Assembly: GCF_000146505.1 (NCBI RefSeq)
Contig: NC_017448.1
Coordinates: forward strand, 480,001-512,000
Origin: Fibrobacter succinogenes subsp. succinogenes S85
GTDB lineage: Bacteria; Fibrobacterota; Fibrobacteria; Fibrobacterales; Fibrobacteraceae
Reading direction: 5' to 3'
DNA: 32,000 nucleotides
Shown: positions 5,918-30,062 of the stretch, in pieces
How positions within the stretch are numbered: position 1 is the stretch's first letter
Layout of the letters: the number at the start of each line of letters is the position of its first letter
The notes under the pieces: generated by a model
Told to the model about the DNA's origin: nothing
Seen by the model: only the letters and a program-made list of their open reading frames with translations
Databases searched by the model: none
Position numbers and translations under genes: made by a program

Positions 5918-6961
5918 TTATTTCTTGTCGCGGATGCGGGCGTAGAGGGTTTCAGCTTTTTCGGTGTCGCCGGCGTTCGAGAAGATATGGCCTACGTTTT
6001 CGGCACCAATGCGGCCCTGAGAATTACCGGCACGCCAAGCCTTCATGTAACATTCAAACGCTTCGTCGTAACGCTTTTGCGTAAAGTAAATTTGCCCTAA
6101 ATCAAGGTTCAAATCGGCGATGCCTTTCTTGTGGCGGAGTCCTTCTTCCAGCGTGAAAATAGCCATCCACGGGGATTCATTCTTGACATACATCTGCGCA
6201 AGATAACGGCGAGCGGAAACGTTTTCAGGGTCCATCATCACGCCGTTTTCCATTTCATTGAGAGCGAGCCGCGTAGAATCCATGCTGCGGTAGTAATACG
6301 AGAGCGTGTAATGTACGTCGGCGCCAGCAGTCGCTGTCATCTGGAGCGCATTCTTGAGCGTCTTCACCGCATATTCGTAATCGCCAAGCTTTTCATAGAC
6401 TTCGGCAAGACCATACCAAGCGTCCATGCGGTCCGGGTTTAGCGCCAGCGCACGTTCAAAATGCTTTTGCGCAAGCGTCCAATCGCTGCCCTTCATATAA
6501 CATTCAGCAAGGGCGAAATGAATGTGATCCGTTTCCGTCCCGAGTTCAATCGCACGGTTGTAGGCGACAATCGCATCGCTCGGAGATTCGGCGAGGTAGT
6601 ACAAATCGCCAAGAAGCATCCAAGCCTTCACAAAATCCGGAAGGAGTTCAACAGTGCGCTTGTAAGCAACCATCGCGACTTCTTTTTTGCCGAGCTGCAC
6701 AAGGGCGTTGCCCAAGTTGAACCACGCAAACGGCTCGTAACGGCCATCGTCAATCGCGGCACGGTAATACTTCACCGATTCCTTGTAACGCCCCTGGTCG
6801 TAAAGCTCGTTCGCCTTGAAGAAGAAATCATCCGCAGCATGCAGCGGCAGCGCAAGAAGGAATACTAAGACGAGAGACGAGAGACGAGAGACGAGAGATT
6901 TTTCTTTCGTCTTTCGTCTGTAGGAGCAAAGCTCCGTTCTATTGTCTAACCTACTTAACAA
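5918..6961 (-). CDS. tetratricopeptide (TPR) repeat protein with signal peptide (TtpD-like position in the TonB2 cluster)
   Basis: Multiple 34-aa TPR units (e.g. YDQGRYKESVKYYRAAIDD, AWFNLGNALVQLGKKEVAMVAYKRTVEL). The signal-peptide-like SLVLVFLLALPLHA|AD is reachable only from the TTG at 6961, the only ATG/GTG/TTG upstream of it in frame. Confidence 0.8.
   Translation of the reverse strand: MLSRLDNRTELCSYRRKTKEKSLVSRLSSLVLVFLLALPLHAADDFFFKANELYDQGRYKESVKYYRAAIDDGRYEPFAWFNLGNALVQLGKKEVAMVAYKRTVELLPDFVKAWMLLGDLYYLAESPSDAIVAYNRAIELGTETDHIHFALAECYMKGSDWTLAQKHFERALALNPDRMDAWYGLAEVYEKLGDYEYAVKTLKNALQMTATAGADVHYTLSYYYRSMDSTRLALNEMENGVMMDPENVSARRYLAQMYVKNESPWMAIFTLEEGLRHKKGIADLNLDLGQIYFTQKRYDEAFECYMKAWRAGNSQGRIGAENVGHIFSNAGDTEKAETLYARIRDKK
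6866..6949 (-). repeat. heptamer-palindromic element, copy A (TAGAC box, GGAGC-TTT-GCTCC hairpin, CAGACGAAAGACGAAAGA, then (TCTCTCG)x4)
   Basis: Read directly on the minus strand as TAGACAATAGAACGGAGCTTTGCTCCTACAGACGAAAGACGAAAGAAAAATCTCTCGTCTCTCGTCTCTCGTCTCTCGTCTTAG. It lies inside the 5' end of the TPR ORF. Its TAG is the tonB stop. Confidence 0.9.
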
Positions 6962-7592
6962 AACGGAACTCCTTTGTAGCTTTTTGTGCTACTGGGAAGC
7001 CGCGTAACTGCGCCGGAGAGAACTTCCACTGGCGAATAGCCTTGAGCGCTTCGATATCAAAGCCATAGCCAGCCGGGTCCTGCGTCAGCACCTGAGCCTG
7101 AGCCACGTCGCCGTTCACATCAATCACAATAAATACTTTCACGTAACCCGAGACGCCCATTTTCTTGGCGCGTTCAGGGAACTTCGGCTGGATTTCGCGC
7201 AACACTTGCGCCTGTTCATCCACTTCGCCAGCCTCGTAAATAACATTTTCCATCGAGCCTGCATCTACGGCAACGCCATCGCCAGCAGCACCGCGAGCAA
7301 GCGACAAATCCATCTGGAAATTCTGACTGCGAGATACACCCATGTGCGCCGAAACCTTGAACGTGTTCGGAGTCGCCACCGTACGGATGACCTTCTGCTT
7401 CACTTCGGGCTTTTTCTCACTCACGAGGACTTCAACTTCGGTCACTTCTTCGAGAACTTTTTCGGACTTCACGCCTTTATCGAAGAACAACACGTTGATG
7501 ACCGGGATCGCAAGGAAGAACACCGCGCCCACGACAAACGAGAGCACAAACGCCACCGGGAATCGGAAATATTTCGCACAAAAGTCAAGCAT
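6951..7592 (-). CDS. tonB: energy transducer TonB
   Basis: N-terminal TM anchor, then a TonB C-terminal domain (GYVKVFIVIDVNGDVAQAQVLTQDPAGYGFDIEALKAIRQWKFSPA). It follows exbB and exbD. Confidence 0.85.
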   Translation of the reverse strand: MLDFCAKYFRFPVAFVLSFVVGAVFFLAIPVINVLFFDKGVKSEKVLEEVTEVEVLVSEKKPEVKQKVIRTVATPNTFKVSAHMGVSRSQNFQMDLSLARGAAGDGVAVDAGSMENVIYEAGEVDEQAQVLREIQPKFPERAKKMGVSGYVKVFIVIDVNGDVAQAQVLTQDPAGYGFDIEALKAIRQWKFSPAQLRGFPVAQKATKEFRFVK

Positions 7593-8008: not shown

Positions 8009-8637
8009 TCAACCTCCTTGGCAAAGCAACGTTCTTCGAACTTGAGCGCTTCGCCCCAGGCAAAATCACCAATAGAATCTACTCGACTTTCGAGATAGTT
8101 ATAAACGAGCATCAACGGGAACGCGACAAGCAAGCCCGCCTGCGTCGTGAGGAGCGCTTCGGAAATGCCATCGGCCAAGAGCACCGGGTTTCCAAAGCCA
8201 AATTGCTTAATCGTCTCGAACGTATGCACCATGCCAGATACCGTTCCCAGAAGTCCGAGGAGCGGAGCAATCGAAGCGCAAGTCACAATCGTCTTGAGCG
8301 ACTTGGAAAGGCTCACGTCCAGTTCGTGACGCGTCGCGAGCATCGCATTGCGTACAGCCACAGGACCATCGTTACGGTACTTCCGCACGTTTTCGACCAA
8401 AGCCAAGAAGTAGCCAAAGCGGCGCTTGCGGAGTTTTGCAAAAGCAGCCTCCTCGCCCACCGTGTCCAAATCCTTGAAGAACTTCGAAGTCGAAGTGCCC
8501 TTCAGCATAAAATAATAGCCGTATCGTTCAAACATCAAGAACCAGCCCAGCCACCCAATCAGGAATAGCGGGAGCAACACCCAGCCGCCGCGCAGCAGGA
8601 TGCTCATGGTCGCTTCGATGACGGAATACTCGTCCAT
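8005..8637 (-). CDS. exbB: MotA/TolQ/ExbB proton-channel protein
   Basis: 210 aa with three TM segments and the conserved block IAPLLGLLGTVSGMVHTF...LLADGISEALLTTQAGLLVAFP. Confidence 0.9.
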   Translation of the reverse strand: MDEYSVIEATMSILLRGGWVLLPLFLIGWLGWFLMFERYGYYFMLKGTSTSKFFKDLDTVGEEAAFAKLRKRRFGYFLALVENVRKYRNDGPVAVRNAMLATRHELDVSLSKSLKTIVTCASIAPLLGLLGTVSGMVHTFETIKQFGFGNPVLLADGISEALLTTQAGLLVAFPLMLVYNYLESRVDSIGDFAWGEALKFEERCFAKEVE

Positions 8638-10205
8638 TACTTTTCCTTAATCCAGATAGCGTTGAGGACGGCAAGGCCCGTCTTTTCCATACGGGTACGG
8701 ACAGAATCCGAGATGTTCACGAGGAGCGTGTGCAAGAGCTGGAGCGGGATAGCCACGATAAGGCCAGCTTCCGTCGTCACAAGGGCAATGGAAATACCGC
8801 CTGCCAAAAGTTTCGGGTCGCTCGTGCCGTGCATGGTGATGACATTGAAAAGTTCAATCATACCCATAACGGTACCCAAAAGACCGAGGAGCGGTGCAGT
8901 CGAGGCAAACACGGAAATCCAGCTGAGGCCCATTTCAAGCTTCGGCACTTCGCCAGCGAACAGGACTTCGAGAGACTTTTCGGCGCTGGCACGGTCCTTG
9001 AAATTCTTGCCAAGCACGGAGCGCAACACCTTGCCCACTTCACCATGAGCACTTTGGGATTCAGCCGTTGCAAGACGGAGGTCGCGATTTGCGAGAGCCT
9101 TTACCGCATTGCGTGCACCACGGCCACCAAAACCAAGCACGAGGAGCCAAACAAGGCGCACGAGGAAGATGATAAGGCCGAGGATAAAGAGCGTTGCAAT
9201 CGGGTACATCAGAATGCCACCGTTGTGGAAAAATTCAGCAAAGTCTTCTTTCCACGTGGTTTCCTGGTGGTTTGCAAGTTCACTCGAAAGTTCGGTACTG
9301 AGGAGGACATCGACCGGCACCATCACGAAAGCGGAATCGTTAGCGCCAGCAAAAGCCTTTGCCACATCCTTGCGCGTTTCGGGAGAGAGATTTTCTTGCC
9401 AGCTATAGACGCGCTTCTTTTCGCCTGCCACCGGGAGCATCAAAGCCGACGGATGGAAGCCGTTGATGTCTGTGACCTTCGCCATCTGCATAGCAAAGAG
9501 GCCGCCCAAGCGCATGCGGTCGCCTTCGGCAACCGAGCTACCGAACATGAGGTCCGCCTTTTCGGTGCGGACTTCACGCGTAAACTTCATTTCTTTCTTG
9601 GCAACGTCGAGCATCGCGCGGGCAATGCGGAGCGGGTCATCACGGTAGAGCCCCATCTCTTTCTTGACCTTATTCTGCGCTTCGACGCGATCGGCAACCT
9701 TGAACGGCACGCCCTGTTCCTGGAACTTGGCGAGCATTTCCAAGCGTTCCGGACCTGCAGCGAGCGAGAGGTATTCGGCACGTGCCTTTTCAGCCTGGAG
9801 CTTGACCTGTGCCAAGTCTTCGCGAGCCACGCGCACATCTTCGAGCAAGCGGGTACGTTCGGACATCAAGGCATCCACGCGTTCCTTGCCGAGCTGATAC
9901 TTTTCATTGAAGAGTTCACGTTCCTTGTTGAACGTTTCGCGGTCCTTCCATCGGGCGGCGACAGCCATGTCGCGCTTGCGGCGGGCTTCTTCGAGATCAG
10001 CCTTAGCGCTGTTGAGTTCGGCGCGTTTCTTGACGGCATCAACAGTCGTGTTCTGCTGAGCATTAGAAGCAGGAGCGAGAAGCAAAACTAAGACGAGAGG
10101 CGAGAGACGAGAGACGAGAGATAAACGCCTCAAAAAACCGCTACTAGAAGACACTCTTTCGTCTTTCGTCTGAAGGGGCGAAGCACCGTTCTTTCGTCTA
10201 AACAT
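8637..10205 (-). CDS. large MotA/TolQ/ExbB-family protein with a ~330 aa N-terminal periplasmic coiled-coil domain (TtpC-like)
   Basis: The C-terminus carries TAPLLGLLGTVMGMIELF...LLAGGISIALVTTEAGLIVAIP. The N-terminus has signal peptide ...LSPLVLVLLLAPASNA|QQ. The ATG at 10205 overlaps the upstream TAA (TAATG). Confidence 0.85.
   Translation of the reverse strand: MFRRKNGASPLQTKDERVSSSSGFLRRLSLVSRLSPLVLVLLLAPASNAQQNTTVDAVKKRAELNSAKADLEEARRKRDMAVAARWKDRETFNKERELFNEKYQLGKERVDALMSERTRLLEDVRVAREDLAQVKLQAEKARAEYLSLAAGPERLEMLAKFQEQGVPFKVADRVEAQNKVKKEMGLYRDDPLRIARAMLDVAKKEMKFTREVRTEKADLMFGSSVAEGDRMRLGGLFAMQMAKVTDINGFHPSALMLPVAGEKKRVYSWQENLSPETRKDVAKAFAGANDSAFVMVPVDVLLSTELSSELANHQETTWKEDFAEFFHNGGILMYPIATLFILGLIIFLVRLVWLLVLGFGGRGARNAVKALANRDLRLATAESQSAHGEVGKVLRSVLGKNFKDRASAEKSLEVLFAGEVPKLEMGLSWISVFASTAPLLGLLGTVMGMIELFNVITMHGTSDPKLLAGGISIALVTTEAGLIVAIPLQLLHTLLVNISDSVRTRMEKTGLAVLNAIWIKEK
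10088..10202 (-). repeat. heptamer-palindromic element, copy B
   Basis: Minus-strand read: TTTAGACGAAAGAACGGTGCTTCGCCCCTTCAGACGAAAGACGAAAGA, a 35-nt spacer, then TCTCTCGTCTCTCGTCTCTCGCCTCTCGTCTTAG. It starts right after the ATG of the TtpC-like gene. Confidence 0.9.
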
Positions 10206-13760: not shown

Positions 13761-14993
13761 TTACTTTCCTGAATTCAAAATTCGTACATAACTTGCATAG
13801 CGAGCTTCAGAAATTTTGCCCGATTCAACAGCAGCACGCACAGCACAGCCCGGTTCCTTAAGGTGTTTGCAGTTGCTAAACTTGCACGTGAACAAATCAT
13901 CTTCGAAAAAACCCGGAAAAATCTTAGCAAGCGTTTCGGGTTCCATGTCCATAAGGCCAATGCTACGAATGCCCGGCGTATCGATTACGTAACCACCACC
14001 CGGGAAATCAAACAAGCTCGAAGAGGTCGTCGTATGGCGACCCTTGCCGTCGCGTTCACGAACATCTCCCGTGCGCAGTTCGGCGTGAGGAACAAGTTCA
14101 TTAATCAATGTAGACTTGCCGACACCGCTCATGCCACTAAAGACTGAGGACTTTCCGACGAGTTCATTGCGCAGAACTTCGAGGCCATCCCCACTTTTAA
14201 CGCTCACGGGAATCACCTTGTCCACGATTTTCATGAAGTCGCGGATATCGCTCGAAAGGTCCGCTTCGCCGTTCGGCAGCAAATCCATCTTGGTGAGCAC
14301 GAGCACAAACGGCAAATCGTTCAAGTTTGCGGCAAGCAAAAAGCGGTCCATGAATCCGTAGTTGAATTCCGGCTGCGTCACGCTTGCGACAATCACGACC
14401 TGGTCAATATTAGCGGCAAGCGTCTGCTGCTTGTAGAAGCTATCACGCGGGCCCGGGCGCTTGAGTTCGCTCTTTCGCGGGAGCACACGCACAACGCAAT
14501 ACTTCTGCGAACCGACGCCATCGCCTTCGTCATCTGCATCGTTCACGAGACCGAGCAAAACGCGGTCGCCCACGGCAGGAAATTCACCAAGCGTTTTGGA
14601 CGTTGTCGCACGGTACATGGCAGTAACTGTGTTAGACGAAAGACGAGAGTCGAGAGACGAGAGAGGGGTATTTTCTTTCGTCTCTCGTCTGTAGCTCGCG
14701 TCAGCGAGCGTTCTATCGTCTAACCGCACTTCGCAGGTGCGGCGGTGGACTTCGAGCACAAGGCCTTCCACACAATTTTCTTCACCGATGTTTTCAACCG
14801 GATTCTTGATACGCTTGATTTTCGCCTTTTTAAATTCGCGACTGAAACGTTCCTTGATAGGACGTTCATCAACGACTCCCGATTCCAATTCACGCATCAC
14901 GTCGATACGGCGGCTTCTGTGTTCGCGTCTTGATGTGCGAACACTCTTCAAAGGAGCTTCATTTTCGTCGGAATCAAAATCGTTATTTCGCAT
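13761..14993 (-). CDS. rsgA: ribosome small-subunit-dependent GTPase A (RsgA/YjeQ) with a basic N-terminal extension and an in-frame repeat-element insertion
   Basis: Circularly permuted GTPase motifs LVLTKMDL (NKxD-type) and FSGMSGVGKSTLINEL (G1), plus the zinc knuckle CKFSNCKHLKEPGCAV. The OB-fold strands VEGLVLEVHRRTCEV ... VTAMYRA...AVGDRVLL are split by about 30 codons. Confidence 0.9.
   Translation of the reverse strand: MRNNDFDSDENEAPLKSVRTSRREHRSRRIDVMRELESGVVDERPIKERFSREFKKAKIKRIKNPVENIGEENCVEGLVLEVHRRTCEVRLDDRTLADASYRRETKENTPLSSLDSRLSSNTVTAMYRATTSKTLGEFPAVGDRVLLGLVNDADDEGDGVGSQKYCVVRVLPRKSELKRPGPRDSFYKQQTLAANIDQVVIVASVTQPEFNYGFMDRFLLAANLNDLPFVLVLTKMDLLPNGEADLSSDIRDFMKIVDKVIPVSVKSGDGLEVLRNELVGKSSVFSGMSGVGKSTLINELVPHAELRTGDVRERDGKGRHTTTSSSLFDFPGGGYVIDTPGIRSIGLMDMEPETLAKIFPGFFEDDLFTCKFSNCKHLKEPGCAVRAAVESGKISEARYASYVRILNSGK
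14632..14722 (-). repeat. heptamer-palindromic element, copy C (inside the rsgA coding sequence)
   Basis: Minus-strand read: TTAGACGATAGAACGCTCGCTGACGCGAGCTACAGACGAGAGACGAAAGAAAATACCCCTCTCTCGTCTCTCGACTCTCGTCTTTCGTCTAA. The modular order is the same as in copies A, B and E. Confidence 0.9.
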
Positions 14994-15270: not shown

Positions 15271-15323
15271 GGTCTAAAGATAGAAATTAGTAGACGGTAG
15301 GAAGTTGGCAGTAGGAAGAAGAA
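15271..15323. repeat. variant TAGAC/GTAGGAA heptamer element
   Basis: GGTCTAAAGATAGAAATTAGTAGACGGTAGGAAGTTGGCAGTAGGAAGAAGAAAGA. It shares TAGACGGTAGGAAGT with 18044-18058 and GTTGGCAG with 20223-20230. Confidence 0.7.
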
Positions 15324-16505: not shown

Positions 16506-16535
16506 TCACATAGCAAAATCGGCTCTAGATTTTGA

Positions 16536-16551
16536 TGGCACGCATTTTGCT
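16536..16551 (+). promoter_or_regulatory. sigma54-type -24/-12 promoter upstream of purF
   Basis: Exact TGGCACG-CATT-TTGCT with GG-N10-GC spacing, about 90 nt upstream of the purF ATG on the same strand. Confidence 0.6.
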
Positions 16552-16639
16552 ATCCTATGCGGTCCACTTCTCCGCTTGCACCCGTATGGGTGAGCTACGG
16601 CCTTCGAGGCAAGGGAAGTATTCATTTCAAAGAGGCTTT

Positions 16640-18025
16640 ATGCTCGACGAATTGCACGAAGAATGCGGCGTTATCGGCATTTATAATGGCGACGCCGTTG
16701 TCCGTAATATTACCATGGGCCTTTACGCACTGCAGCACCGCGGTCAAGAAAGTGCCGGTTTTGCAATCAGCGACGGAGACAAGATTCGCGTCCGCAAATC
16801 CATGGGACTAGTTTCAACGTTACTGCGAGAACACAACATTGACGAATTTGACGGTTTCGCCGGCATCGGTCATGTGCGATACAGCACGACAGGTGCAAGC
16901 ACTCTTGCCAACGCACAGCCGATTCTCGTCAGTTGCAAGTGGGGGCAAATTGCAGTCGCCCACAACGGCAACATCACTAACGCCAACGAACTTCGTGCCG
17001 AAATGGAAGCCGATGGCCACATTTTCCAGACCACTTCAGATTCTGAAATCCTTTTACACGAAATAGCACGCACCCAGGCCGATGACCTGGGTGAAGCCAT
17101 AAAAAAAGCCATCACAAAATTTACGGGAAGCTTCTGCCTCGTTTTTATCAGCAAAGATTCCATGTATGTCGCCCGCGATGGTTTCGGTTTCCGCCCGCTC
17201 TCGATTGCCCGCATGGGTAAAGCATGGTGCGTTGCTAGCGAAACCTGCGCATTTGACTTGCTCGGCGCAAACTACGTTCGCGACATCCAGCCCGGTGAAT
17301 TTTTGACCATTACAAAGAACGGGCTCCATTCCGAACGCTTTACGCAAAAAGATCGCCTCGCCCACTGCATTTTTGAATACATCTATTTTAGCAGACCGGA
17401 TTCCAAGATTTTTGAACAAAGTTGCGATAAAATTCGCCGTAAGATGGGCAAGCAGCTCGCCAAGGAATGCCCTGTCGATGCAGACATCGTCATCTCTGTG
17501 CCGGACAGCGCCACAACAGCGGCACTCGGTTACGCACAAGCTAGCGGCATCCGTTTTGAAATAGGCTTACTCCGTAACCACTACGTTGGAAGAACGTTCA
17601 TCGACCCCACGCAAAACGTCCGCGAACAGAAAGTCAAGCTTAAATTCAACCCCATCGTGGGCGTGCTCAAGAACAAGCGCGTTTGCGTCGTCGAAGACTC
17701 CATCGTACGAGGTACAACACTCAAGATTTTATCCAAAATGCTCCGCGATGCAGGCGCACTTGAAGTGCATATCCGTATCGCATCGCCTCCGGTAGCTCAT
17801 CCCTGTTTCTTCGGCATGGACTTCCCGAGTCAAGGCGAACTTGCCGCAAGTTCTATGACGCCTAACGAAATTGCACAAATGCTCGGAGTCGAAAGTCTTG
17901 GCTACCTGAGCGTTGAAGGCATGAAGGAATGTACCGGTGAAGGCGAGAACTACTGCGCCGCATGCTTTGACAACGACTACCCCGATTATATCGGAACCGA
18001 CGCTCAAAAGACACGCTGCGGGTAA
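16640..18025 (+). CDS. purF: amidophosphoribosyltransferase (glutamine PRPP amidotransferase), Fe-S/propeptide type
   Basis: MLDELHEE|CGVIGIY provides the N-terminal nucleophile Cys after a short propeptide. Other motifs are GIGHVRYSTTG, the PRPP loop VCVVEDSIVRGTT, and Cys ligands (CIFEY, CFFGMDFP, CAACFDNDYP). An AAGAGG Shine-Dalgarno lies at 16629-16634. Confidence 0.95.
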   Translation: MLDELHEECGVIGIYNGDAVVRNITMGLYALQHRGQESAGFAISDGDKIRVRKSMGLVSTLLREHNIDEFDGFAGIGHVRYSTTGASTLANAQPILVSCKWGQIAVAHNGNITNANELRAEMEADGHIFQTTSDSEILLHEIARTQADDLGEAIKKAITKFTGSFCLVFISKDSMYVARDGFGFRPLSIARMGKAWCVASETCAFDLLGANYVRDIQPGEFLTITKNGLHSERFTQKDRLAHCIFEYIYFSRPDSKIFEQSCDKIRRKMGKQLAKECPVDADIVISVPDSATTAALGYAQASGIRFEIGLLRNHYVGRTFIDPTQNVREQKVKLKFNPIVGVLKNKRVCVVEDSIVRGTTLKILSKMLRDAGALEVHIRIASPPVAHPCFFGMDFPSQGELAASSMTPNEIAQMLGVESLGYLSVEGMKECTGEGENYCAACFDNDYPDYIGTDAQKTRCG

Positions 18026-18109: not shown

Positions 18110-18140
18110 CTGTCTACTTCCGACAGCCTATAGTCTACTA
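18110..18140. repeat. variant GTAGGAA/TAGAC element, right arm
   Basis: GTCTACTTCC and TAGTCTACTA are reverse complements of GGAAGTAGAC/TAGTAGAC-type boxes seen at 18031-18058 and 15288-15300. Confidence 0.6.
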
Positions 18141-18141
18141 A

Positions 18142-19062
18142 TTAAGCGTTTTCAAATGTCCAGCGGATGTGTTCATCCAAAAATTCATGGGCATCGAATG
18201 CCAAATCAAAACTGTCCTTGATTTTCTGGACGCTATAGAGCATGGGTTCATCACCCCACCCCATATCGGTTTCAACGATTTTTGATTTGCACCCAGGCTT
18301 AAGGGCAATCATCTTTTCTGCAATTTCTTTCCAGCTAATCCATTCAGAACCAAGACCGAGGAAGATTTCTTCGTTCAAATCGGATTCCAGGAGCTTCATA
18401 TAAATTTGAGCCTGCTGAGAAGCATGGATAAACTGCGTACCGTCATTCTTGATGATATTGATATCGCGGTCTTCCTTGACAGCATAAGCCATTTCAAAGA
18501 ACCTGCGGTCAGGCTGAGAGCACCCATCGGGGAACGCCGGATTGCCAAACGTATATCCCGGACGGATAATATTGCGTTTCATCTTGACTTCGGGAAACTG
18601 GCTTCCGTAACCATGGCTAAAGCCAAGCACAAAAGCCTCACCAGCCGCCTTGGTCGCCCCATAAAGGTCAATCGGCAAATTGCTCGTCATCTCGTGCATT
18701 TCGGAACGCACACGTCCCATCGCCGAGGTGCTGCTAGTATAAATAAACTTGTCACAACCCGCACGAGCGGCCATTTCCAAAAGAGCGATCGTTGCACGAG
18801 TATCGTTCATGAGCATTGCACTTGGAGTATCGCCCCAACCGAGAGCCACGTGAATGCAGGCATCACAGCCGACAAGGCCCTCGCCCATCTTTTCAAAATC
18901 CGTCAAAGCGGCCTCGACAAACGAGACGTTCGGATTAGCCCTTAAAGTCGGCACCTTGTTCGGGTGACGCGTTGCTACAACGACTTCATGCCCTCTATCC
19001 AAAAGAGCCTTGACCACATAATGACCGATAAAGCCGGTACCACCCGTTACAAATACTCGCAT
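18142..19062 (-). CDS. NAD-dependent epimerase/dehydratase family protein (extended SDR)
   Basis: MRVFVTGGTGFIGHYVVKALLDRGHEV (Rossmann GxxGxxG) and YGATKAAGE (YxxxK). I chose the start at 19062; the ORF track extends to 19095. Confidence 0.85.
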   Translation of the reverse strand: MRVFVTGGTGFIGHYVVKALLDRGHEVVVATRHPNKVPTLRANPNVSFVEAALTDFEKMGEGLVGCDACIHVALGWGDTPSAMLMNDTRATIALLEMAARAGCDKFIYTSSTSAMGRVRSEMHEMTSNLPIDLYGATKAAGEAFVLGFSHGYGSQFPEVKMKRNIIRPGYTFGNPAFPDGCSQPDRRFFEMAYAVKEDRDINIIKNDGTQFIHASQQAQIYMKLLESDLNEEIFLGLGSEWISWKEIAEKMIALKPGCKSKIVETDMGWGDEPMLYSVQKIKDSFDLAFDAHEFLDEHIRWTFENA

Positions 19063-24231: not shown

Positions 24232-26571
24232 ATGAAAAAGCCACTCAAAATCACCCTCATTGTATTAGGATCTTTGATCCTCCTCTACTTCGTCACACTT
24301 CTCGTAGCGCCCAAGATTGCCCGTAGCTACATCGAAGAGCACTCCAAGGAAATGATTGGCCGAAGCATCACCATCAAGAACATCAGCCTGAACCCGTTTA
24401 CCTACGTCTTGGACGTAGATACGCTCGCGGTCATGGAAGCGGACGACAAGACCCGCTTTGTCGCGTTCGACAAGTTCAGCATGAACATCAACCCGTTAAA
24501 GCTCTTCACGAGAACGCTTGACATCAGCGACATCTACATGAAGGCCCTCTATGTTCGCACCACGCAGCACGGAGAACGCTTCAACTTCTCCGACATTCTA
24601 GACTTCCTCGCCCAAAAGGACAGCATCTATTATGCCGAGCACCCCGAAGAAAAGAAGGTCGAATCGGACAGCAGCAAGAGCGCTGCCGAAATCGCCGCCG
24701 GGCTCCCCGTCAAGCTCAGCCTGAGAAACATTGTATTCGACAAGGGCAACATCATCTACCAGGATACAAAAGTCGGCTCCAAGTTCCACCTCAAGGACTT
24801 TTCCATCAACATCCCGGCCATTTATCTCGAAGACAACTCGACCGGCGTCGACGTGAGCCTCAAGTTTGCAGACGGCGGTGACCTGAACGTGAAGGTCGAT
24901 GCCAACATGGCCACCTACGACTTCAACATTTTCCTGAACCTGAATAGATTTGCACTCTCCTGCATCAAGCCGTACCTGAACGATTCCATCAACTACAAGG
25001 ATTTTGCGGGTTACCTCTCGGCTCAAATCTCCATCAGCGGTAACATCAACAGCATCCTCGCCTCCAATGTCAAGGGCAAGGTCTCGCTCGACAAGATTGA
25101 CCTCACCGAAGTCAGCGGAAGCAAGATGGGCGCAGAAAACGTCACCGTCGGAATCAACAAGGCAAACCTCGTCGACAACGAATACCTCATCGACTCCGTC
25201 ATCGTAGATGGTGCCTTCGCCCACATCGACCTGTACAAGGACGGCAAGACAAACATTGACGTACTCCTCACCCCGAAGAACAAGGCCGGAAGCGTGACGG
25301 ATACAACCGCCGCCGATTCTACGCAGGTAGAACCGGTTGCAGAAGCTGCAAAGCAAGAACCCGCAGACACGACGAAGGTCGTCGCTGATTCGACTAGCGC
25401 AACAACCACAGCAGAAAAGCCCGCCGCCGCAAAGAAGCTCAAGGCGAAGATTAACAAGCTCCTCGTCAAGAACACTTACATCACCATCACCGATCACACC
25501 ATTATCCGTCCGTTCAACTACAAGGTGAGCGCCATTACCGTTACCGGCCAGAACATCAACTACGACACGCCTTGCAACGTGAACGTTTCTGCCGCATTCC
25601 CCGAAGGTGGCAGTCTCTCGCTCAAATACCACGGAGCCCTCAGCAACCTGAACACGATGGACATCTACATCAGCGTGAAAAACCTCGTGCTCAAGCACTT
25701 CTCGAACTACTCGTTGCACTACACAGCCTACCCGCTCAAGGCAGGCACCCTCGCCTTCGCCAGCGAAAACAAGATTGTCGACCGCAACCTCGACAGCAAG
25801 AACACCATCGACATTTACAACATCACCGTCGGGAACAAGGTGGACGACATTGATCCGGAATACACAGTCCCGATGAAGATCGGTCTCTATATCTTGAAGG
25901 ACAAGGACGACAAGATTCAGTTCGACGTGCCGGTCAAAGGTAACCTGGACGACCCGGAATTCTCTTACGGCAAAATCATCTGGAAGACAGTCGTGAACCT
26001 TCTCGTAAAGGTCGCCATTTCGCCGTTCAGACTCGTCGGGAACCTCGCCATGGCAGGCGCCAACGCTCTCGGCTTTGACCTCGGCAAGAACAACGAAGTG
26101 CTAATTGATGCCAACACCGAAACGTTCACCAGCGAACAATACGCCAAGGCCATCAAAATGACCGAAATGCTCCAGAAGGATCCGAAGTTAATGCTGACAT
26201 TCACGCAATACTACAATCCGAGAAAGACAGCCAAGGAATACAAGGTCAAGCAGCTCAAAATTGATTTCTACAAACAAAAGAATAATAAGACTGAACTGAA
26301 CGAACTTGACTACAGAGCCATTGAAGAAATCAAGGAAAAAGACAAGGAGTTCCAGGCTTACGTCAAGGAACATTCCGCTGAAATTGACAAGAACTACATG
26401 ATGAAGGTTCTCCCGCAAATGGCAACAAAGCGCAACAACGACCTTCTCAAGGTCTTGCGCGCACAGCCGGGTGTCACGAAAAAGAACCTCAAGGTCATCA
26501 CTGCTCCGAGAGACGCACTCCGCGGCTACAAAGACAAACCGATGTATAAAGTTGACGTAGACGTACAATAA
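24232..26571 (+). CDS. DUF748 / AsmA-like large envelope protein
   Basis: N-terminal anchor MKKPLKITLIVLGSLILLYFV and a long beta-rich repeat body. The C-terminal block PMKIGLYILKDKDDKIQFDVPVKGNLDDPEFSYGKII is typical of DUF748. I chose the start at 24232 to avoid overlapping the GH9 gene. Confidence 0.7.
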   Translation: MKKPLKITLIVLGSLILLYFVTLLVAPKIARSYIEEHSKEMIGRSITIKNISLNPFTYVLDVDTLAVMEADDKTRFVAFDKFSMNINPLKLFTRTLDISDIYMKALYVRTTQHGERFNFSDILDFLAQKDSIYYAEHPEEKKVESDSSKSAAEIAAGLPVKLSLRNIVFDKGNIIYQDTKVGSKFHLKDFSINIPAIYLEDNSTGVDVSLKFADGGDLNVKVDANMATYDFNIFLNLNRFALSCIKPYLNDSINYKDFAGYLSAQISISGNINSILASNVKGKVSLDKIDLTEVSGSKMGAENVTVGINKANLVDNEYLIDSVIVDGAFAHIDLYKDGKTNIDVLLTPKNKAGSVTDTTAADSTQVEPVAEAAKQEPADTTKVVADSTSATTTAEKPAAAKKLKAKINKLLVKNTYITITDHTIIRPFNYKVSAITVTGQNINYDTPCNVNVSAAFPEGGSLSLKYHGALSNLNTMDIYISVKNLVLKHFSNYSLHYTAYPLKAGTLAFASENKIVDRNLDSKNTIDIYNITVGNKVDDIDPEYTVPMKIGLYILKDKDDKIQFDVPVKGNLDDPEFSYGKIIWKTVVNLLVKVAISPFRLVGNLAMAGANALGFDLGKNNEVLIDANTETFTSEQYAKAIKMTEMLQKDPKLMLTFTQYYNPRKTAKEYKVKQLKIDFYKQKNNKTELNELDYRAIEEIKEKDKEFQAYVKEHSAEIDKNYMMKVLPQMATKRNNDLLKVLRAQPGVTKKNLKVITAPRDALRGYKDKPMYKVDVDVQ

Positions 26572-26614
26572 TAGACGAGAGAACGCCGCTCTGCGGCTAC
26601 AGACGAAAGACGAA
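26572..26614 (+). repeat. heptamer-palindromic element, copy D (left half only)
   Basis: TAA|TAGACGAGAGAACGCCGCTCTGCGGCTACAGACGAAAGACGAAA. It has box 1, the GC hairpin and box 2, but no TCTTTCG arm. A terminator hairpin follows instead. Confidence 0.8.
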
Positions 26615-26620
26615 AAAAAA

Positions 26621-26646
26621 GGCATCGCTGAGCGATGTCCTTTTTT
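26621..26646. terminator. intrinsic terminator between convergent DUF748 (+) and nucleotidyltransferase (-) genes
   Basis: GGCATCGC-TGA-GCGATGTCC hairpin with an A8 run before it and a T6 run after it. Confidence 0.65.
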
Positions 26647-26696
26647 AAATGCGGATCAAGCGTGCCGCGCATTCCTGCGCTACACTATTTCAAAAA

Positions 26697-28010: not shown

Positions 28011-28292
28011 ATGATCAAGCCTTTAGCAGATCGAATCGTTGTCAAGCCGGCAGAAGCCGAACAGAAGACCTCCTCCGGTCTCTTCATTCCGGATAATGCA
28101 AAGGAAAAGCCGATGCAGGGTAAGGTCGTGGCCGTAGGTCCGGGTCGCAAGAACGACAAGGGCGAAGTAGTCGCTATGGAAGTCAAGGTTGGCGACGTGG
28201 TGCTTTACGGCAAGTACAGCGGTACCGAAGTTACCGTTGATGGCGAAAACTTCCTCATCGTTAAGGAATCCGACGTTATCGCTACTCTGTAA
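28011..28292 (+). CDS. groES: co-chaperonin GroES
   Basis: [45 protein letters not shown]... is canonical Cpn10. An AAAGAGGA Shine-Dalgarno precedes the ATG at 28011. The track start at 27891 is an upstream extension. Confidence 0.95.

Positions 28293-30062
<1,770 letters not shown>

Follow-up and report, generated by a model that had tools for sequence, protein, structure and literature searches.

We analyzed a stretch of 32,000 nucleotides from Fibrobacter succinogenes subsp. succinogenes S85 (NC_017448.1, positions 480,001 to 512,000; hereafter the window) and found that its rsgA gene, which encodes the ribosome-assembly GTPase RsgA, carries in frame a full copy of a repeat that we call family A. 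The segment is very probably a short non-coding palindromic dispersed repeat that is translated in a turn of the N-terminal OB fold, where it is tolerated and probably has no function, and the turn is a nest to which such repeats have come recurrently across the genus.

A family-A repeat copy inside an intact rsgA

The open reading frame that holds the repeat was identical (100%) to RsgA of F. succinogenes S85 and matched the Pfam domain RsgA_GTPase (PF03193) over residues 170-347 (E = 5.4e-54). The protein showed the features that define RsgA/YjeQ: an N-terminal OB fold, a C-terminal zinc finger, and a circularly permuted GTPase domain in which the G motifs are permuted, with NKxD before the P-loop and DTPG after it. 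Among 115 aligned RsgA sequences, K235/D237, G287-S294 and D338-G341 were invariant, as were the zinc-finger residues C370, C375, H377 and C383. Across the rsgA orthologs the columns of the P-loop, NKxD, DTPG and the Cys/His zinc finger showed no variation, and outside the loop the close relatives shared >95% identity.

An assembly error or a decaying gene could also leave a repeat within a reading frame, and repeats are easily misassembled in metagenome-assembled genomes. The identical S85 protein was found on 43 contigs from several sources, one of them a 3.84-Mb genome record, and the catalytic and zinc-binding residues are invariant. Judged from its sequence, S85 rsgA is not a pseudogene, with flanks under strong purifying selection that vary only synonymously, and an artefact or pseudogene is hardly credible at all. 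As for a second rsgA, the nearest clusters outside Fibrobacter came from Fibrobacterales metagenome-assembled genomes or from metagenome contigs, none labelled S85, in a comparison that covered less than the whole genome.

The rsgA copy of family A was 92 bases long and gave a net gain of 26-27 codons over orthologs with a short loop (Table 1). The insert peptide reads ..EVRLDDRTLADASYRRETKENTPLSSLDSRLSSNTVTAMYRA.., and about 27 low-complexity residues, DDRTLADASYRRETKENTPLSSLDSRLSSN, are added in S85. The first-pass annotation, which was made from the sequence alone, had described a protein of 410 residues with this peptide and a full element in the canonical order from the TAGAC box to the TCTCTCG-type arm; both descriptions held. 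It had placed the element correctly, at 14632-14722, but one base short of its real extent.

Family A is composed of two inverted arrays of the heptamer AGACGAR and a GTAG-tagged GC hairpin. Its ends form a terminal inverted repeat of 8-9 bp, TTAGACGA...TCGTCTAA, and in rsgA the right arm ends in TCGTCTAA. The 18-mer arm pattern, with up to 3 mismatches, matched 16 times in the window against 0.01 matches expected. A hidden Markov model (HMM) built from the three other full copies in the window retrieved the rsgA copy over model positions 2-110 (leave-one-out nhmmer, E = 3.6e-16), and the full copies were 83-112 nucleotides (nt) long. Rfam gave one match in the window, the Fibro-purF motif, and no repeat matched a described RNA family. 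A metagenome scan with the box-hairpin-arm pattern of family A returned at least 120 contigs, from which 123 non-redundant copies were listed (loci L069-L188). The box was kept as TAGACGARAGAACG in 28 copies from the window and the species loci and in the 123 metagenome copies listed.

Folded as a single strand, the element is predicted to form a three-way junction of a terminal stem, the GC hairpin and a long hairpin of the heptamer arms, with TTAGACGAA (14632-14640) paired to ATCGTCTAA (14715-14723). The sense strand of the rsgA copy, folded as RNA, gave -43.8 kcal/mol (z = -5.9). The stem of the tagged hairpin was typically a perfect 4-6 bp GC stem flanked by direct AGACGARAGA repeats, and its sequence was hypervariable, with 70 variants among the 123 copies listed. 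Nevertheless, 95 of these 123 copies had a perfect stem of 4 bp or more, whereas shuffled controls averaged 0.5 bp. Tags and stems in the window read GTAG-CTCGC.., GTAG-GAGC.. and GTAG-CCGC.., with ATAG and GAAG variants; the tag was part of the metagenome search pattern, and independent evidence for it comes only from the window and the species loci. In one subfamily, GCTCGC-AAG-CTCGC, a direct repeat replaces the palindrome.

No frame of the AGACGAR and YTCGTCT arrays has a stop codon, and each orientation of the compact full copies is open in exactly one frame, which in the forward direction is frame 2 (DDRT..), so that an insertion that keeps the frame would simply be translated.

We predicted the structure of RsgA with AlphaFold2 from the 115 aligned sequences (mean predicted local distance difference test score, pLDDT, 78.5). 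A sequence search against solved structures gave alignments that begin past residue 141 and could not place the insert, and the model was compared by Foldseek instead. The best matches were RsgA structures (7boi_W, 5no2_Z and 2rcn; template modelling scores 0.79-0.82), and the model superposed on the 30S-bound RsgA of E. coli. Strands of the OB domain were predicted at 74-82, 86-91, 122-126, 144-150 and 164-170. Residues 92-121 sit between strands E86-91 and E122-126 with a low pLDDT of 46-69, in favour of the loop location that the earlier proposal of a structure check had looked for. In the model, the insert thus makes the beta2-beta3 turn of the OB fold some 27 residues longer, and the inserted loop is probably disordered.

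A recurrent repeat nest in the OB-fold turn

To compare the turn among relatives, rsgA loci were taken from 67 other Fibrobacter species, of which 66 had a complete gene. Left out of the counts were L065, where the contig end cuts the gene, and L068, which is not Fibrobacter; the 66 species and the window gave 67 genes. The open reading frame was unbroken in all 67, in line with the earlier statement that the insert holds no stop. The loop is flanked by EVHRRTCEVR(L/F/I) (EARL in L063) and VTAMYRA, which are otherwise invariant in residues and vary in synonymous codons. Between these flanks the loop length ranged from 4 to 58 codons (the latter in L019), with a composite of 88 residues in the metagenome contig L179. 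Short loops of 4-5 codons (for example DDGT, NDET, SEET and PEEGT) were present in 16 genes, recognisable repeat DNA in 41 (A in 24, B in 9, C in 7 and D in 6, more than one family in 5) and other long loops in the remaining 10. All 51 loops of more than 5 codons were multiples of three and free of stops.

The Fibrobacterales outgroups and the majority of the distant RsgA proteins have a turn of 2-6 residues at this place. With the 16 short loops within the genus, the ortholog alignment, which had been proposed as a check, showed the insertion to be lineage-specific. Three distant RsgA homologues (P0123, P0129 and P0131) had long unrelated insertions in the beta2-beta3 turn, which indicates that the turn is permissive well beyond Fibrobacter. 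In L037 (10267-10366) the turn held a tandem 15-nt repeat, (SADVQ)n, that belongs to none of the dispersed families.

Family A occupied the turn in gene-sense orientation in S85, L001-L010, L018 and L021-L026, and in reverse in L016, L061 and L034. Family B, marked by CTTCCTACTTCC...CCGTCTAC, reads LPTSDFLPST in the turn of other species; family C is a small GC hairpin beside inverted arrays of TTCGGAA/AACTCCG, and family D has the sequence GATCCTTCG...GCTCAGGATGAC. Several loops were composite: L002 has family D nested in the family-A spacer, L003 and L006 have a truncated A followed by B, and L009 has A followed by a C-like array. On a tree of rsgA without the loop, the insert types were interleaved with short loops, and very close relatives alternated between A and C. 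The rsgA turn is thus a recurrent and tolerated repeat nest and not a single accident. The pattern requires at least several independent entries into the turn, and its history combines gains, some of them nested, with internal deletions and losses that were nearly complete.

A very stable hairpin within a coding sequence could also be passed over, so that the insert would be absent from the mature protein through translational bypassing, RNA processing or an intein-like reaction. In that case the length and stop content of the insert could vary freely, yet all 51 long loops are in frame and open, and the nests in both neighbouring genes described below keep the frame and lack stops in the same way. 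The segment contains no intein motifs, no stop codon and no matched take-off and landing codons, and we consider skipping or removal very improbable.

We propose that a non-autonomous family-A repeat landed, in its open frame, in a turn of 4-5 codons between OB beta-strands 2 and 3. A frame-keeping insert would be translated as a flexible surface loop of about 27 residues, with the protein remaining functional. It would persist because the turn is one of few sites free of constraint in a gene that is otherwise tightly constrained, while insertions elsewhere would be purged. The repeats may also insert preferentially into, or next to, one another and so add to the nest; the tolerant turn, perhaps together with this preference, would be the cause of the hotspot. 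At least four families would have struck the turn, A in both directions, leaving nested insertions, internal deletions and footprints.

Several observations weigh against this account or limit it. Frame conservation is the one line of evidence that points to translation of the insert. Metagenome-assembled genomes make up most of the comparison sequences, and the tree was built by neighbour joining from a single gene. Some short loops have the look of footprints: that of L004, TAGATGATGGAACG, agrees with the A box in 11 of 14 positions, and all relatives of L004 carry A. Remnants of the A arm occur even in L059, the most divergent and basal lineage, as well as in L031, L051, L053 and L013, and copies that have a common spacer bear entirely different hairpins (GAGC and CCCGC), which suggests conversion. 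Part of the pattern may therefore go back to one ancient insertion and its decay and not to repeated gains. In its full form, this alternative has a single family-A insertion in the Fibrobacter ancestor, followed in place by decay, deletions within the copy, excision that was nearly precise, and gene conversion or replacement with other repeat copies as the source. We regard it as possible though doubtful: family A is present in both orientations at the turn, families B, C and D occupy it alone or nested and cannot be derived from A by decay, and very close relatives switch between A and C. It complements the account of repeated entries but cannot replace it.

The hairpin itself raises the question of selection. 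In rsgA copies with the same flanks, the stem was CCCGC/GCGGG in L002, CTCGC/GCGAG in S85 and CCTGC/GCAGG in L007. Such paired changes may point to selection on the hairpin, something that pure neutrality does not predict. Paired stem changes can also arise without selection, by quasi-palindrome correction or gene conversion; selection, templated palindrome correction or gene conversion may each account for those seen here. The OB domain anchors RsgA on helix 44 (h44), and its beta1-beta2 loop recognises the h44 minor groove (PMC8579695, PMC5499641); the domain that carries the insert itself contacts h44.

A selected function in rsgA would fit these stem changes, the strong fold of the sense RNA and the anchoring role of the OB domain (PMC5499641). 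The insert would then act as a protein loop that tunes the OB contact with the 30S decoding centre, or as a DNA/RNA hairpin that could serve in pausing, stability or processing of the message or as a target of a recombinase. We consider such a function improbable, since a quarter of the species (16 of 67) have an insert-free turn and the rest share no peptide or structure; those others carry unrelated segments of 10-58 residues in either orientation, and the loop is predicted to be disordered. Most likely the insert is neutral and has no function of its own in rsgA. The earlier view that an essential GTPase tolerates a repeat-derived loop stands as to tolerance, but "essential" was overstated, as RsgA is reported to be non-essential in S. 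aureus (PMC8579695).

The mobility of family A, by transposition or recombination, is suggested by its distribution, because no target-site duplication could be defined between filled and empty sites at four loci and no autonomous partner was seen. At these four loci the flanks were too diverged or taken by other repeats, and a TA duplication is possible (TA/GAC...GTC/TA) but indistinguishable from the element's own ends. No autonomous partner (an insertion sequence, IS, or a RAYT transposase) was seen in the ~2.1 Mb sampled, with no search aimed at RAYT genes. In the same ~2.1 Mb, a look for an autonomous element bounded by inverted A boxes gave one pair 0.5-3.5 kb apart, which flanked an ordinary gene. 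The A pattern gave zero matches to IMG/VR viral contigs and thus no sign of a phage origin; family A is known from Fibrobacter genomes and from the metagenome contigs that the scan returned.

Family A in other genes of the window and in metagenomes

Besides the rsgA copy, the window contained four family-A copies, two of them at the 5' ends of genes (Table 1).

Table 1. Position and context of the family-A copies in the window, and of the parts of the copy inside rsgA (window coordinates; TPR, tetratricopeptide repeat).
Feature	Position	Strand	Reading or context	Basis
rsgA coding sequence, intact, repeat-bearing	13761..14993	-	410 amino acids	open reading frame list, PF03193, AlphaFold2 model against solved RsgA structures
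Full family-A copy in rsgA	14632..14723	-	in frame as Leu91 to Asn121	sequence, leave-one-out nhmmer, short-loop orthologs
TAGAC box / left terminal inverted repeat, TTAGACGATAGAACG	14709..14723	-	encodes L-D-D-R-T	conservation, fold
GC hairpin, GCTCGC-GTCA-GCGAGC	14694-14709	palindrome, read on -		sequence, fold
GTAG tag of GC hairpin	14691-14694	+		sequence
Purine heptamer arm, CAGACGAGAGACGAAAGA	14674..14691	-	encodes ..YRRETKE..	exact pattern match; pairs with pyrimidine arm in fold
Spacer, 9 nt	14665..14673	-	loop of long hairpin	sequence, fold
Pyrimidine heptamer arm (TCTCTCG-type) and right terminal inverted repeat, TCTCTCGTCTCTCGACTCTCGTCTTTCGTCTAA	14632..14664	-	encodes PLSSLDSRLSSN	sequence, fold
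Family-A copy in leader of TPR protein (5918..6961)	6862..6951	-	open in frame from conserved TTG	TPR Pfam matches
Family-A copy as N-terminal extension of ExbB/MotA-family protein (8637..10205)	10086..10203	-	in frame	PF01618
Partial family-A copy (box, hairpin, first arm)	26569..26620	+	starts at upstream stop, TAA/TAGAC	HMM, E = 4.6e-12
Full family-A copy between 133-residue and 544-residue open reading frames	28290..28400	+	in spacer; starts at TAA/TAGAC	HMM, E = 1.8e-32

For copies at gene 5' ends, a stop-free span is uninformative because the heptamer arrays are stop-free in every frame, and we relied on the comparison of ortholog lengths modulo 3 and on Pfam matches on both sides. The ATG of the ExbB/MotA-family gene was conserved in 14 species. 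In 3 of these it runs straight into a normal signal peptide, and the other 11 have 33-120 extra nt built of A, D and other repeats; over the 14 species all length differences were multiples of 3 and there were no stops. In the S85 protein, the pyrimidine arm of A encodes LSLVSRLSPLVLV, which belongs to the signal peptide's hydrophobic core.

The TPR gene starts at a conserved TTG that overlaps the stop of a TonB-like gene (6951..7592). The distance from this TTG to the core of the signal peptide was 144-369 nt in 11 species, congruent modulo 3 and stop-free throughout, with sequences that differ completely among the species and family-B heptamers that encode a hydrophobic segment, FLLPTVYFLLL, in several of them. 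In S85 the leader reads RLDNRTELCSYRRKTKEKSLVSRLSS, which agrees with the earlier remark that the left arm is read there in the same frame as in rsgA.

Of the two remaining copies, the partial one is a half-module with a terminator-like hairpin and a T-run after it (26569-26650), and the full one lies between two genes that are presumably groES (133 residues) and groEL (544 residues). Family-B copies, GTAGACGGTAGGAAGTTGGCAGTAGGAAG with its inverted partner, were found at 15285-15320 and 18114-18143, just upstream of the 95-residue open reading frame that precedes rsgA. Apparent family-B copies inside open reading frames were rejected, as they lie outside coding sequence, between two genes and on the antisense strand. 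The Fibro-purF RNA motif (16562-16636, +; 99.1 bits, E = 5.5e-25) lay upstream of an amidophosphoribosyltransferase-like open reading frame, and from its location the mechanically called frame 16532..18025 probably starts too early.

The metagenome scan argues against a family confined to a few loci. Among the 123 metagenome copies listed, 35 in sense and 13 in antisense orientation lay within open frames that extend for at least 40 codons to either side. About 50 lay in sense orientation at the stop of the upstream open reading frame or up to 15 nt past it, and in 20 the TAG of the box was itself that stop; an ATG followed within 30 nt downstream in 12. The commonest form was a half-module of 45-48 nt (box, hairpin and first arm), and a right arm was present within 90 nt in 16 of 121 listed.

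Further genes throughout the genus also carry family A in frame. In all seven hosts tested, Pfam domains flanked the insert on both sides: a class I/II aminotransferase, a radical-SAM/SPASM protein, MnmE (inside the G domain), a CbiX-siroheme synthase, an EF-G-like GTPase, an RlmL-like methyltransferase and CobA-HemD (two inserts). Typical insert peptides were LDERT-x5-LQT(K/R)DE or (L/F)RRENAxxxATDERRE. Some of these other host genes also looked nest-like (loci L070/L080/L112/L171, L082/L145/L148/L166, L128/L184 and L178): in the aminotransferase and the radical-SAM protein the insert was followed by variable extra repeat sequence that differed by contig. A protein that by appearance is TilS-like had an antisense A module adjoining a family-D segment. 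At the 3' end of one gene (L033 1990-2140, compared with L032 and L040), three states were found in close relatives: repeat-free, a family-A copy whose TAG truncates the C-terminus, and an unrelated repeat made of GGAATGT/GTAATGT heptamer arrays. This is a further case of one site reused by different families.

A tentative and rather unlikely alternative is that the 45-48 nt A module, with its TAG-containing box, tagged hairpin and purine-rich tail, is a portable intercistronic cassette of Fibrobacter that supplies a stop codon, an RNA/DNA hairpin and a ribosome-binding-like tail right before the next ATG. Its two other frames may then be translated, which would provide core proteins with loops, linkers, gene fusions and signal-peptide extensions, and the paired stem changes in the rsgA copies suggest that the hairpin would be actively maintained even within coding sequence. 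If this is true, it would imply machinery that reads structure independently of sequence (a recombinase or transposase, or a function at the RNA level) or templated palindrome correction across the genome, and the rsgA turn would be a preferred target beyond being merely tolerant.

The rsgA turn is a natural experiment on insertion tolerance, in which one turn of the OB fold takes from 4 to 88 residues. The repeats furnish pieces of signal peptides and interdomain linkers, and hypervariable low-complexity loops in Fibrobacter proteins should be annotated with the warning that they are repeat DNA. The hypervariable rsgA loop between invariant coding flanks could serve as a practical strain marker. 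A hairpin that is conserved in structure and hypervariable in sequence may also inform how elements resembling repetitive extragenic palindromic (REP) sequences arise and persist.

Relation to known repeat families

No description of Fibrobacter repeats was found in the literature searched. The short tandemly repeated repetitive (STRR) sequences of cyanobacteria are dispersed tandem arrays of 7 nt, a unit length that family A shares and that, not being a multiple of 3, cycles through all three frames. They are not inverted arrays around a tagged hairpin, and we know of no STRR that recurs as in-frame inserts in core genes.

The full family-A copies have the terminal inverted repeats and the small non-coding size of MITEs, the miniature inverted-repeat transposable elements. 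Like the bacterial MITEs ERIC/RU, Correia and Coxiella QMITE, which are ~90-120 bp long with terminal inverted repeats (PMC2759123, PMC3184786, PMC10969869), they have strong secondary structure, lack a transposase and are occasionally fused in frame to host open reading frames. The commonest form of family A differs from MITEs, as it is the half-module of 45-48 nt without the second inverted repeat.

REP palindromes are typically 20-40 bp long, longer than the family-A stem. Family A has the combination of tag and GC palindrome by which GTAG-tagged REPs are recognized. As in those elements (Di Nocera et al. 2013, PMC3733652), the GTAG stem-loop is small and GC-rich, and some copies are in genes of known proteins; those REPs are mostly found just past coding regions in fixed orientation, and about 50 of the 123 family-A copies listed lay at or close after an upstream stop. 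REPs inside genes are known from Opitutus terrae and Xanthomonas, among others, with different REPs at about one site in Xanthomonas recB (PMC3733652). Family A differs from the GTAG-tagged REPs in its hypervariable stem of 4-6 bp, which in full copies is embedded in a longer element with inverted repeats.

The in-frame repeats of Rickettsia were surprising when found and were linked to the reductive genome evolution of an intracellular parasite. Rickettsia palindromic elements (RPEs) are short palindromic repeats of several families per genome, found between genes and in frame in genes of functional proteins, which thereby gain a peptide where the fold allows it (Ogata et al. 2000/2002, summarised in PMC10969869 and PMC3733652); in R. 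conorii, 19 of 44 copies are intragenic (PMC10969869). The first-pass annotation had likened the rsgA insert to RPEs and called such colonization otherwise rare. The analogy is apt, and many other genes are hit as well, but the rarity was overstated, given the REPs above and the intragenic ERIC/RU elements and Coxiella MITEs (PMC3733652, PMC2759123, PMC10969869). Like RPEs, family A is dispersed, palindromic and in frame in functional genes, with more than a quarter of the listed copies (35 of 123) internal in sense orientation. The likeness is one of behaviour, and we regard RPEs as an analogue and claim no membership. In contrast to RPEs, family A belongs to another phylum, its host is a free-living gut fibre degrader and not an obligate intracellular parasite with a decaying genome, it is built of inverted heptamer arrays with a GTAG-tagged hairpin, and one site of four codons is reused by several families across the genus. 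Family A thus extends behaviour of the kind known from RPEs and intragenic REPs to a new phylum, in a free-living cellulolytic gut bacterium, throughout a whole genus and in many housekeeping proteins, among them RsgA, MnmE, an EF-G-like GTPase, an aminotransferase and CobA-HemD.

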